A stretch of 64,000 bases of DNA, taken from the IMG/VR virus record IMGVR_UViG_3300035180_002599, positions 1-64,000 of that record. One strand, written 5' to 3'. The translations under genes were made by a program, and so were the position numbers. The notes under the pieces were generated by a model that ran no database searches, was not told the DNA's origin, and saw only the letters and a program-made list of their open reading frames with translations. Source of the stretch: a virus. Positions 12,363 through 14,296 of this stretch are shown here, piece by piece (positions within the stretch are counted from its first letter, which is position 1; every line of letters starts with the position of its first letter).

Positions 12363-12824
12363 ATGGATTATAATAGTTTTTGGAGAACAATGGTTAACAA
12401 CTCTAAAGTCACACCTAAAGAAGTATTGTCGGAGTTACAAAAAACTAAGCAAAATATGAAGACCCTTAAAAGGGAAGACATGTACAAACAGTACGGTCAA
12501 ATGTTTGACTCTATTTTTGAAGATTTAACTAAAATTTTCAGTGAAGATGAACAACCAGAAATCAACACAGAGAAATCAAAAGGTTTTTCTGAAAAAACTG
12601 GTAAAATCGAAATCCCTTTGGCAGGGTATTCAAAGGCAGATATTTCCGTTAAGTTGGAAAAAGATATTTTGATTGTATCAAATACAAACCCAAATAAACC
12701 TTCCAAAACATTGAAATATCGAATACCAGGTGATATTGAAGAAGTTTCATTAAGCATGGAAAACGGATTGTTAACTGCAATGGTTAAACGACCTAATTTA
12801 ACTCCAAATATTAAGTGGATTTAA
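12363..12824 (+). CDS. Small heat-shock (Hsp20 / alpha-crystallin) family protein
   Basis: C-terminal IEIPLAGYSKADISV...MENGLL. Confidence 0.7.
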   Translation: MDYNSFWRTMVNNSKVTPKEVLSELQKTKQNMKTLKREDMYKQYGQMFDSIFEDLTKIFSEDEQPEINTEKSKGFSEKTGKIEIPLAGYSKADISVKLEKDILIVSNTNPNKPSKTLKYRIPGDIEEVSLSMENGLLTAMVKRPNLTPNIKWI

Positions 12825-12891
12825 TCTTATTTTAAGATAGTTTGTGATATAATACAAACATAAATAAAACAACAAACAAAAGGAACAAGTC

Positions 12892-12924
12892 ATGAAGAGT
12901 ACAAAACTTCAAGACGTGTTTTGA
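12892..12924 (+). CDS. Putative leader peptide MKSTKLQDVF upstream of two tRNA-Lys genes
   Basis: Promoter at 12831-12853, AAGGA RBS at 12880-12884, Lys codons at positions 2 and 5; the stop codon lies inside a hairpin switch. Confidence 0.55.
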   Translation: MKSTKLQDVF

Positions 12925-12986
12925 TTCATTCAATCTAAGAATCAAGAGGCGTCTTTAAATAATCAAATGATTGATAGGACGCCTCT
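12911..12986 (+). promoter_or_regulatory. Two-state RNA switch overlapping the tRNA-Lys acceptor stem
   Basis: 12911-12927 pairs with 12939-12955 (16 bp, one G.G mismatch), or 12945-12955 pairs with 12976-12986 (11 bp), which includes tRNA nt 1-6. Confidence 0.6.
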
Positions 12987-13054
12987 AAAACTTTAAAGTG
13001 AAGTACCGTGCTTTTAACACGGATAAGATGGAGCATTACCGTCTAGAGGTACCA
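12981..13054 (+). tRNA. tRNA-Lys(UUU), non-canonical D/T loops
   Basis: Acceptor GCCTCTA/TAGAGGT+ACCA; anticodon arm CCGTG-cttttaa-CACGG; T-arm GATGG-agcatta-CCGTC. Confidence 0.8.
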
Positions 13055-13063
13055 TACATTTAT

Positions 13064-13139
13064 GTATCGGTAGCCCAATGGTTAAGGCACTATACTTTTA
13101 ATATAGGGATTGAGAGTTCGAGTCTCTCTCGATACACCA
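13064..13139 (+). tRNA. tRNA-Lys(UUU)
   Basis: GTATCGG/TCGATAC+ACCA; CTATA-cttttaa-TATAG; TTCGAGT T-loop. Confidence 0.92.
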
Positions 13140-13142
13140 AAA

Positions 13143-13276
13143 TAGTTAATTTATGAAGACACATTATCTTGAAAATAAATGAAGGTCATGAGACAGTTGT
13201 GTGTGTAACCATAAGTTAATTAATAATTTGATAAAGAAACGGATTTTATAACAGACACATCACGTTTCTTTATCAA
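13143..13276 (+). ncRNA. Candidate structured RNA (two long hairpins) between the tRNA blocks
   Basis: 13143-13155/13210-13222 (13 bp including GU pairs) and 13228-13241/13263-13276 (14 bp perfect). Confidence 0.35.
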
Positions 13277-13320
13277 GTTATAAAATAACTAATAAATAAA
13301 ATAAAAATCAAGGAGCAAAT

Positions 13321-13407
13321 ATGTTTAGTCATATGCAACCGCATAGTTTTAGTACTTTTCATCATTTTAGTATGAGCATGTTTGCTCATTTTATGCTGAG
13401 TTATTAA
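13321..13407 (+). CDS. Putative attenuator leader peptide MFSHMQPHSFSTFHHFSMSMFAHFMLSY
   Basis: AAGGAG RBS at 13310-13315; 6 Phe, 6 Ser (all AGY), 5 His, 5 Met and 1 Pro, matching the downstream tRNA set; followed by alternative hairpins. Confidence 0.8.
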   Translation: MFSHMQPHSFSTFHHFSMSMFAHFMLSY

Positions 13408-13556
13408 TCTCAGGAATTTCGGTTCCTGAGAGGGAACCGAAATAAGATCTTACAAATCCTCTGTTTCAGTAACATTTCCGTTACGTTCCTCCAACAAAAT
13501 AATTTTTTTTAATGTCACCTTTTTCAGAAATACTTATACTTTTTCTGAAATTTTCT
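13408..13556 (+). promoter_or_regulatory. Attenuator-like region: mutually exclusive hairpins, C-rich tract and weak terminator-like hairpin
   Basis: Hairpin A 13408-13416/13423-13431; hairpin B 13416-13427/13432-13443 (GAGA loop); 17 C versus 5 G in 13451-13520; hairpin 13522-13530/13542-13550 followed by TTTTCT. Confidence 0.6.
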
Positions 13557-13559
13557 CAT

Positions 13560-13635
13560 GCCATTCATACAAATCAAGTGAATGTACCAGACTGAAAATC
13601 TGAGGAGCCGGGAGCGTTACCCGGGAATGGCACCA
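13560..13635 (+). tRNA. tRNA-Phe(GAA), non-canonical D/T loops
   Basis: GCCATTC/GAATGGC+ACCA; CAGA-ctgaaaa-TCTG; T-arm CCGGG-agcgtta-CCCGG. Confidence 0.8.
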
Positions 13636-13673
13636 TTGAACATACAATAAAGAACTTATTGAAGTTTTTAATT

Positions 13674-13747
13674 GTGTTCGTAGCATAAAAGTAATGCGCT
13701 GGTTTGTGGCACCAGATAAGCGGGAGCGTTACCCGTCGTTCACCCCA
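13674..13747 (+). tRNA. tRNA-His(GUG), non-canonical T loop, no encoded G-1
   Basis: GTGTTCG/CGTTCAC+C+CCA; CTGGT-ttgtggc-ACCAG; GCGGG-agcgtta-CCCGT. Confidence 0.75.
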
Positions 13748-13751
13748 AAAT

Positions 13752-13826
13752 GCCATCATAGCTCAATGGTAGAGCGATACGTTGAAGGCGTATGCGTTGT
13801 AGGTTCAAGTCCTACTGTTGGCACCA
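13752..13826 (+). tRNA. tRNA-Phe(GAA)
   Basis: GCCATCA/TGTTGGC+ACCA; ATACG-ttgaagg-CGTAT; TTCAAGT T-loop. Confidence 0.88.
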
Positions 13827-13835
13827 TCTTTTTAT

Positions 13836-13912
13836 CTGGTTGTAACGTGAGTGGTATAACGGGCCGTTTTGGAAACGGGGAGAAGTGAGTTCGAGTCTCA
13901 CCTGCCAGACCA
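13836..13912 (+). tRNA. tRNA-Pro(UGG)
   Basis: C1-G72/A73; CCGT-tttggaa-ACGG; GTGAG-ttcgagt-CTCAC; CCA encoded. Confidence 0.8.
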
Positions 13913-13925
13913 ACAATTTGTAAAT

Positions 13926-14002
13926 GGTGTTTGTAGATTTAATGGTAAAACGCTTCCCTGTGAAGGAAGTAATTGAGAGTTCAAGTCTCTCCATTCACCC
14001 CA
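13926..14002 (+). tRNA. tRNA-His(GUG) with encoded G-1
   Basis: G-GTGTTTG/CATTCAC-C-CCA; CTTCC-ctgtgaa-GGAAG; TTCAAGT T-loop. Confidence 0.88.
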
Positions 14003-14008
14003 AAATAT

Positions 14009-14080
14009 GCCTACACTTCAGGTGAAGATCGTTCTCTCATAAGGAATGATAGTGTGGTTCGATACCACATGTAGGTACCA
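14009..14080 (+). tRNA. tRNA-Met(CAU), short D-arm (Ile2 not excluded)
   Basis: GCCTACA/TGTAGGT+ACCA; GTTCT-ctcataa-GGAAT; TGTGG-ttcgata-CCACA. Confidence 0.78.
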
Positions 14081-14097
14081 ATAATAATGTTTAGTAT

Positions 14098-14172
14098 CGG
14101 GATATGGGAAAGTGGTAATCCGCTTGTTTTGGGAACATGAGACCGTCGGTTCGAGCCCGACTATCCCGACCA
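14098..14172 (+). tRNA. tRNA-Pro(UGG)
   Basis: CGGGATA/TATCCCG+ACCA; anticodon loop tttggga; GTCGG-ttcgagc-CCGAC. Confidence 0.9.
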
Positions 14173-14174
14173 TT

Positions 14175-14257
14175 GGGTGAAGCATGCAAGGTGCATAAGA
14201 GGATTGCTAATCCTTGGGTCGAAAGGCTGCTGAGTTCGATTCTCAGTTCACCCGCCA
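14175..14257 (+). tRNA. tRNA-Ser(GCU)
   Basis: GGGTGAA/TTCACCC+G+CCA; GAGGA-ttgctaa-TCCTT; long variable arm. Confidence 0.88.
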
Positions 14258-14296
14258 AAGTTTATATAAATATTTAAAAATATATTAGGTATTCAT

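Follow-up and report, generated by a model that had tools for sequence, protein, structure and literature searches.

Upstream of two tRNA-Lys genes of an uncultured phage, within positions 12831-13139 of the window, lies a leader that may act as a ribosome-gated RNA switch, one that has no transcription terminator and turns on when charged tRNA-Lys is short; we put the chance that this is its function at about even. The window is the whole stretch of DNA analysed here, namely the first 64 kb (64,000 nucleotides) of a 93-kb IMG/VR virus record (IMGVR_UViG_3300035180_002599), which CheckV estimates to be ~38% complete and which has a G+C content of ~30%. The leader encodes a ten-codon open reading frame (ORF) with two Lys codons, and the 3' part of this ORF belongs to a hairpin that excludes a second, competing helix formed with the first bases of the tRNA. 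The same architecture is conserved, with covarying helices, in a family of phage leaders. Since ~90 other uncultured phage sequences share the layout, the maturation of tRNA-Lys is probably tied to the reading of Lys codons.

The leader, its competing helices and its tRNA genes

A Shine-Dalgarno (SD) sequence, AAGGAA (12880-12885; all features of the leader are on the plus strand), is found 6 nt upstream of an ATG at 12892, from which the ORF MKSTKLQDVF runs to a TGA at 12922-12924 (12892-12924). Lys is encoded by codon 2 (AAG, 12895-12897) and by codon 5 (AAA, 12904-12906). An initial annotation of this DNA had pointed out the ribosome-binding site, the ORF and both Lys positions, and all of them are present in the sequence; the ORF is presumably translated. 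The second Lys codon begins 7 nt ahead of the first paired base of the downstream hairpin, and a ribosome with this codon in its A site would have its leading edge at ~12911 and would therefore abut the base of the hairpin. This is the ribosome geometry that the initial annotation had supposed, and a nearly equal spacing is fixed in the family described below.

The hairpin in question (1:2) is formed by region 1 (12911-12927), which spans the last four sense codons and the stop, and region 2 (12939-12955). As had been claimed, 16 of the 17 positions are paired, two of them as G-U, and the hairpin alone folds at -19.9 kcal/mol in comparison with -6.8 ± 2.3 kcal/mol for dinucleotide shuffles, none of 200 being as good. 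Part of region 2 (12945-12955) doubles as the 5' arm of a second helix (2:3) with region 3 (12976-12986), which consists of five leader nucleotides and nucleotides 1-6 of the tRNA acceptor strand. This alternative helix, likewise confirmed, has 11 contiguous pairs, one of them G-U, and folds alone at -20.8 kcal/mol (shuffles, -5.4 ± 2.4 kcal/mol; 0 of 200 as good); its loop is capped in the predicted fold by a small 5-bp hairpin (12960-12973). Because hairpin 1:2 and helix 2:3 both use 12945-12955, they are mutually exclusive, and because 12981-12986 is shared as well, helix 2:3 also excludes the acceptor stem, in which 12981-12987 pairs with 13044-13050. The shared segments therefore define three successive, mutually exclusive pairings: hairpin 1:2, helix 2:3 and the acceptor stem. 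The acceptor-stem element, which takes the position of helix 3:4 in an attenuator, is followed by ACCAUACAUUUAUG instead of forming a GC hairpin with a U-run, and a consensus scan located no intrinsic terminator within 12831-13139.

The minimum free energy (MFE) structure of 12860-13060 contains the anti-tRNA helix 2:3 (-52.3 kcal/mol, z -6.4). The ON state, in which hairpin 1:2 coexists with the acceptor stem, is less stable at -46.9 kcal/mol, and the OFF state is therefore the ground state and the ON state the first-forming fold. When the footprint of a ribosome at the stop codon was held single-stranded, helix 2:3 formed, and when that of a ribosome stalled at the first Lys codon was masked, hairpin 1:2 and the tRNA cloverleaf were both predicted. 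The structural core of the initial annotation is borne out, with independent backing from the comparative data below, i.e., a leader with Lys codons whose 3' part lies in a hairpin that competes with a helix sequestering the acceptor strand.

The events that we propose would begin during transcription, when hairpin 1:2 would form first and lock up region 2, so that the acceptor stem of tRNA-Lys could fold and RNase P could release the tRNA. A ribosome that translates the leader as far as its stop would unwind region 1, and the freed region 2 would then enter the more stable helix 2:3, which would bury the RNase P site and the first six tRNA bases and presumably prevent maturation of the tRNA. 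Should charged tRNA-Lys be scarce, conceivably because an anticodon nuclease has cut the tRNA-Lys of the host, the ribosome would stall at one of the Lys codons, either codon 2 or codon 5, the latter just before the hairpin. Hairpin 1:2 would stay closed, and phage tRNA-Lys would be produced. Stalling would thus correspond to the ON state.

The first of the two genes behind the leader, a tRNA-Lys(UUU) at 12981-13054, is non-canonical. Over 12981-13051 it scores 35.8 bits against the Rfam tRNA model (RF00005, gathering score 29) and possesses a 7-bp acceptor stem (12981-12987/13044-13050), an anticodon at 13013-13015 in the loop CUUUUAA, discriminator A and an encoded CCA. Its elbow departs from the usual pattern, in that the D-loop UAAAGUG has no GG and the T-loop AGCAUUA does not conform to UUCRANY. 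ARAGORN did not call this gene, and the only tRNA-Lys that it called at the window leader is the canonical tRNA-Lys(UUU) at 13064-13139 (62.9 bits in Rfam). Accordingly, the claim that two tRNA-Lys(UUU) genes follow the leader holds for the second of them, while the first must be described as a structurally altered copy. A pattern built on the D- and T-loops of this copy matched at least 119 contigs in IMG/VR. Among the 120 matches listed (window included), 117 of varied sequence retain the cloverleaf through many compensatory changes, with six or seven of seven acceptor pairs and four or five of five T-stem pairs, and the element therefore belongs to a genuine, widespread family of non-canonical phage tRNA-Lys(UUU). 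Members of this family (L004-L134) have the D-loop UUAAAGUG and the T-loop AGCRUUA, and many are found inside ordinary tRNA arrays.

An anti-acceptor helix in front of all non-canonical tRNA-Lys genes was considered and rejected for want of enrichment, such a helix being confined to the leader-bearing subgroup. The window is the extreme among the 70 distinct contexts compared, with a duplex of -19.0 kcal/mol between upstream sequence and tRNA 5' end. Within 13052-13070, the encoded CCA end of the non-canonical copy together with the spacer behind it (CCATACA) shows complementarity to the start of the canonical tRNA-Lys (TGTATCGG), which could provide a second, weak 5'-end pairing.

A family of leaders with the same architecture

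The subgroup of non-canonical genes closest to the tRNA of the window has the D-arm AAACTTTAAAGTGAAGTA and an encoded CCA, and in some of its loci there is an SD and a mini-ORF (MKTSKR, MKRKSRKL, MKRTGKL and MKRAKR), and behind each of these lies a segment that is complementary to the tRNA 5' end of its own locus. A motif common to these loci, TAGTGTCA...TGGCACRTWAAA, a pattern that names neither the ORF nor the tRNA, matched at least 120 loci in IMG/VR. Approximately 20 of these matches were excluded as an unrelated element beginning with TAGTGTCAAGCCAATT and without an ORF, and 89 unique leaders of the form TAGTGTCA...TGGCAC (covariance model R1) were found among the matches listed. The excluded element, TAGTGTCAAGCCAATT...TGGCACATTAAA, is itself conserved (L143, L147, L150, L153, L163 and ~15 more).

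All 89 leaders contain an ATG and an ORF of six, seven, eight or nine codons (e.g., MKRSGKR), and as these lengths are whole codons, all indels are in frame. A strict motif search found an SD 5-9 nt from the start in 80 of 93 unique sequences; the 13 without one include four with mis-set starts and four that derive from the unrelated element. Codon 2 encodes Lys in every one of the 89 leaders (85 AAA, 4 AAG), as does the codon two before the stop (83 AAA, 6 AAG). The Lys positions vary only synonymously, which fits selection on decoding and not on RNA sequence. Codon 3 is Arg in 81 of 89 leaders (CGT in 59, CGA in 20 and CGC in two), and the last codon varies among Arg (61 of 89), Leu, Gln and Pro; whereas the Lys positions are invariant, His, Gln, Leu and Pro also occur at the Arg positions. 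The first tRNA called downstream by ARAGORN is a tRNA-Lys in 75 of 78 family loci, the usual order being tRNA-Lys(CUU), tRNA-Lys(UUU) and then variable genes, and a tRNA-Arg(ACG) follows in only 15 of the 78.

The hairpin of the family opens at the G of the stop codon, and the second Lys codon keeps a fixed distance of 8 nt from its first paired base. Its lower stem covaries, pair 36-66 being UA in 26 sequences and AU in 26, and native hairpins are more stable (mean -18.9 kcal/mol) than chimeras of halves taken from different loci (-14.1 kcal/mol). Complementarity between the hairpin top and the spacer together with the first 3-8 nt of tRNA-Lys(UUU) (mode 6) gives rise to an anti-tRNA helix that averages 16 bp and -26 kcal/mol. 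This helix covaries with the acceptor sequence, as in CTTCC/GGAAG, CCCCC/GGGGG, TACTCC/GGAGTA and GCCCC/GGGGC. Moreover, complementarity with the same A/T covariation exists between the hairpin's 3' arm and tRNA-Lys(CUU), namely its 5' flank and first bases, and helix 2:3 also takes in the ACCA end of this preceding tRNA. The MFE structure of full-length loci contains helix 2:3 in 68 of 72 cases and the acceptor stem of tRNA-Lys(UUU) in three. When the hairpin is enforced, at a mean cost of 8 kcal/mol, the acceptor stem forms in 55 of 72 loci, and when the ORF and 12 nt past its stop are held single-stranded, as by a terminating ribosome, helix 2:3 forms in 71 of 72.

Individual loci show further features. 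A variant leader (L122:1060-1320) has its usual TAG out of frame, and the frame that begins ATG AAA ACA CGA AAA continues without a stop through 45 codons, as far as the base that precedes the non-canonical tRNA-Lys. In some loci (e.g., L125, L158, L161 and L172), a long hairpin with a variable and structured interior lies directly 3' of tRNA-Lys(UUU) and starts with the ACCA end of the tRNA (ACCATATAAAAACAC...GTGTTTCTATATGGT); it may function as a processing signal or represent a Y-RNA-like small RNA. A sigma-54 promoter was rejected as the explanation of the TGGCAC motif for lack of a -12 element, and the likeness of the MKR start to ribosomal protein L34 was taken as coincidence. A search of GenBank phages with a family leader (blast) gave no match.

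Much like the family leaders, the window leader combines an SD with a mini-ORF whose codon 2 is Lys and in which another Lys codon precedes a hairpin by 7-8 nt. In both, ~6 nt of tRNA-Lys(UUU), counted from its 5' end, enter a helix with which the hairpin competes, a terminator is lacking, and the anti-tRNA fold is the ground state. The two differ in the details. The window ORF has ten codons and its TGA lies inside the 5' arm of the hairpin, whereas the family ORF has six to nine codons and a TAG at the hairpin's base, and the second Lys is six codons before the stop in the window (Lys-5) but two before it in the family. The window also lacks the conserved TAGTGTCA and TGGCAC motifs and a tRNA-Lys(CUU), and its sequestered tRNA is, unlike that of the family, the non-canonical one. 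As model R1 drew a blank at the leader and the motifs are absent, the window leader was treated as an architectural variant rather than a family member; it has either diverged beyond recognition or arisen convergently, and homology is not demonstrable.

Relatives of the window come from contigs of public runs aligned to it. Those from wastewater samples, at ~95% identity, cover the whole leader. A more distant relative, from a hydrothermal-vent sample (run X7), has AAGGACGTACAAA ATG AAG CGA ATG directly before the position equivalent to 12904, giving MKRMK in place of MKSTK, so that the SD, the start codon and Lys at codons 2 and 5 are retained while codons 3-4 and the upstream sequence differ. 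A search of GenBank phages with the window region (megablast and blastn) found no homologue of the leader.

Alternative explanations and the direction of the proposed switch

Several observations weigh against the switch that we propose. With filters off and over the whole window, a cmsearch with model R1 left 12880-12960 without a match even when E values up to 10 were admitted; the link between window and family is one of architecture, and the helix covariation described above pertains to the family leaders. The initial annotation had looked to conservation of both helices in related loci; they do covary in a family of the same build, but this family is not detectably homologous to the window leader. 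Related loci did not appear when IMG/VR was searched with the neighbouring Hsp20-like and NadV proteins, a homologue search with the Hsp20-like protein matched only the protein itself, and two metagenome scans for close relatives of the window leader returned no matches. Over the 70 contexts of non-canonical tRNA-Lys genes, the anti-acceptor helix is no stronger with the tRNA of the same locus (-7.9 kcal/mol) than with that of another (-7.9 kcal/mol). Two Lys codons in ten are unremarkable in a genome of 30% G+C, and we agree with the initial annotation that they are weak evidence by themselves. Arg codons are conserved in the family leaders too. Finally, the masked folding proposed in the initial annotation turned out as expected for a ribosome at the stop and for a stall at Lys-2, which leaves the tRNA free, but with the mask for a stall at Lys-5 (footprint to 12914) helix 2:3 was still predicted, and an ON outcome of that stall would therefore rest on kinetics.

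The ground-state fold itself invites another explanation, in which the leader assists folding or processing and senses no codons. Helix 2:3 would then be a processing stalk or folding chaperone of the tRNA precursor (e.g., a site for RNase III or RNase E), hairpin 1:2 a transient intermediate, and the mini-ORF irrelevant or untranslated. That helix 2:3 is the ground state of the window leader, as of 68 of 72 family loci, would suit such a role, as would the absence of a terminator from 12831-13139, the mean family length of 16 bp, which is the size of an RNase III substrate, the inclusion of the ACCA end of tRNA-Lys(CUU), and the further long hairpins anchored on the ACCA end of tRNA-Lys(UUU). 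An untranslated ORF, however, would hardly have Lys codons that are invariant except for AAA-to-AAG changes, indels that are in frame, synonymous variation at Arg codons, and an SD kept at 5-9 nt although its sequence differs. Nor would a processing stalk account for the fixed spacing between Lys codon and hairpin or for the identity of the first tRNA behind the leader, which is Lys in 75 of 78 loci. We consider this explanation unlikely.

The leader might instead respond to the same signal with the opposite polarity. A stalled ribosome would hold the hairpin partly open, and a shortage of charged tRNA-Lys would favour helix 2:3, which would either be productive (e.g., by RNase III cleavage) or shut the tRNA off. 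The fold under the Lys-5 mask, in which nucleotides to 12914 are single-stranded and the MFE structure still contains helix 2:3, points in this direction, as do the strong conservation and great stability of that helix. A productive helix 2:3 is hard to reconcile with the burial of the RNase P cleavage site and of 3-8 nucleotides of the acceptor strand, and with helix 2:3 formed the acceptor stem is present in only 4 of 72 loci. Moreover, under real depletion the first stall would come at Lys codon 2, which leaves the hairpin untouched. Reversed polarity seems distinctly improbable to us.

A more general gauge of translation has also to be weighed, in which the mini-ORF would report ribosome activity (host shut-off or ribosome shortage) and not the supply of charged tRNA-Lys. 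There are only two Lys codons, Arg is conserved as well (in 81 of 89 leaders for codon 3 and in 61 for the last codon), and any ribosome at the stop codon would open the hairpin. Both Lys positions are nevertheless Lys in all leaders, while the Arg positions accept His, Gln, Leu and Pro, and the regulated genes are always tRNA-Lys, with tRNA-Arg(ACG) present in only 15 of 78 loci. Such a gauge is very unlikely in our estimation. Least probable of all is that the ORF and both helices are functionless accidents of an AT-rich spacer, for although the R1 model has no match in the window, the ORF is short and the pattern was picked from 64 kb, none of 200 shuffles attains either helix, the window leader conforms to the family norm in its three-way overlap, its SD, the spacing from Lys codon to hairpin and the number of tRNA bases (six) that helix 2:3 takes in, and the X7 relative keeps the SD, the ATG, Lys-2 and Lys-5 amid diverged flanks.

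Genomic setting, known systems and significance

The leader sits between an Hsp20-like gene (12363-12824) and a tRNA cluster, with NAD-salvage genes located upstream. The early promoter assigned to 12831-12853 in the initial annotation is only partly supported. An extended -10 element, TGaTATAAT, can be read at 12845-12853 on the plus strand, but the -35 element is weak, and because of this a two-hexamer consensus scan did not list the promoter. Several family loci have a perfect TTGACA-17-TATAAT at the same position. A T-box riboswitch or another Rfam family was rejected as the identity of the leader, since 12831-12980 gave only chance-level matches in Rfam (E > 1) and a search with one family locus matched no curated RNA family either.

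At 13230-13274, after the Lys unit and ahead of the next leader, there is a perfect 12-bp inverted repeat (GATAAAGAAACG / CGTTTCTTTATC, 21-nt loop) with no T-run after it. The second leader ORF (13321-13407), preceded by the SD AAGGAG at 13311-13316, encodes MFSHMQPHSFSTFHHFSMSMFAHFMLSY, in which 23 of 28 codons are Phe (TTT, six), His (CAT, five), Met (five), Ser (AGT/AGC, six) or Pro. Overlapping alternative hairpins, TCTCAGGAA/TTCCTGAGA and TTCGGTTCC/GGAACCGAA, follow within 13321-13445. The tRNA genes and tRNA-like elements behind this leader read the same codons (Phe GAA, His GUG, Pro UGG, Met CAU and Ser GCU). Non-canonical tRNA-like genes alternate there with canonical tRNAs across 13560-14258, namely Phe GAA (13560-13635), His GUG (13674-13744), Pro UGG (13836-13909), Met CAU (14010-14081) and Ser GCU (14175-14258), and ARAGORN calls only the four canonical genes; two of the non-canonical ones have the T-loop AGCGUUA. 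Given the match between the codons of the second leader and the downstream tRNAs, leader-peptide logic appears to be a general device of this phage for its tRNA genes.

The closest kind of known system comprises the leader-peptide transcription attenuators trpL, hisL, pheL, thrL and pheM of pheST; for a general description, see PMC1183508. Much like these, the window leader has a short ORF with an SD and start codon, codons cognate to the regulated product, and overlapping helices 1:2 and 2:3 at the end of the ORF, the choice between which is made in the attenuators, and would be made in the window, by the position of the ribosome. In the attenuators, however, the third element is a GC hairpin with a U-run and the output is transcription termination, whereas in the window the third element is the acceptor stem of a tRNA and the output would be tRNA folding or processing. 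The regulated gene of the window is, moreover, a tRNA that reads the sensor codons themselves, and the regulatory codons number only two. A second known class comprises the translational attenuation leaders of ermC, cat, cmlA and ermB (for ermB, see PMC8274638). In the ermC, cat and cmlA leaders, as proposed for the window, a ribosome within a short leader ORF remodels a downstream hairpin with no terminator involved. There, a drug-stalled ribosome frees a ribosome-binding site, but in the window no ribosome-binding site takes part and the signal would be the supply of charged tRNA-Lys. To our knowledge, the outputs of leader-peptide attenuation, a textbook mechanism, are limited to a transcription terminator or a ribosome-binding site and its targets to protein-coding operons, and literature searches yielded no published account of a leader peptide that controls tRNA genes.

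Inducible tRNA genes, the nearest case in print, are known from Anabaena sp. [quoted passage not shown] As proposed for the window, extra tRNA genes are switched on there when translation is impaired; control is exerted by a promoter repressor, and neither paper mentions a leader peptide or attenuation. Phage tRNAs have also been linked to counter-defence. The tRNA-Lys of T5 counters the AriB effector of PARIS (PMC11464382), and anticodon-loop variants of phage tRNAs have been described in relation to tRNA-cleaving immunity (PMC10264068). The window resembles these cases in that it encodes phage tRNA-Lys(UUU), as a canonical and a structurally altered copy, and tRNA-Lys is a frequent target of defence nucleases. 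To judge by their titles and abstracts, the two papers deal with the tRNAs themselves and mention no cis-acting sensor of their production.

It is possible, if on balance doubtful, that the window leader is such a sensor of attack on tRNA-Lys. Cleavage by a nuclease of the PrrC, RloC or PARIS type would stall ribosomes at the Lys codons of the leader and so release phage tRNA-Lys, beginning with the non-canonical copy, with neither a protein factor nor a terminator being required. The rewired elbow of this copy may allow it to escape the nuclease.

The competing helix partner in the window is the acceptor stem of a tRNA, by which charged tRNA would exert feedback, via the ribosome, on how its own precursor folds and is processed. 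The design is small (~100 nt) and portable, and it might find use in sensing the speed at which particular codons are translated. If the proposed switch is real, it would represent a new class of output for ribosome-mediated switches, offer a simple explanation of how large phages dose tRNA-Lys, and connect, in a directly testable way, with the arms race in which tRNA-Lys is cleaved.

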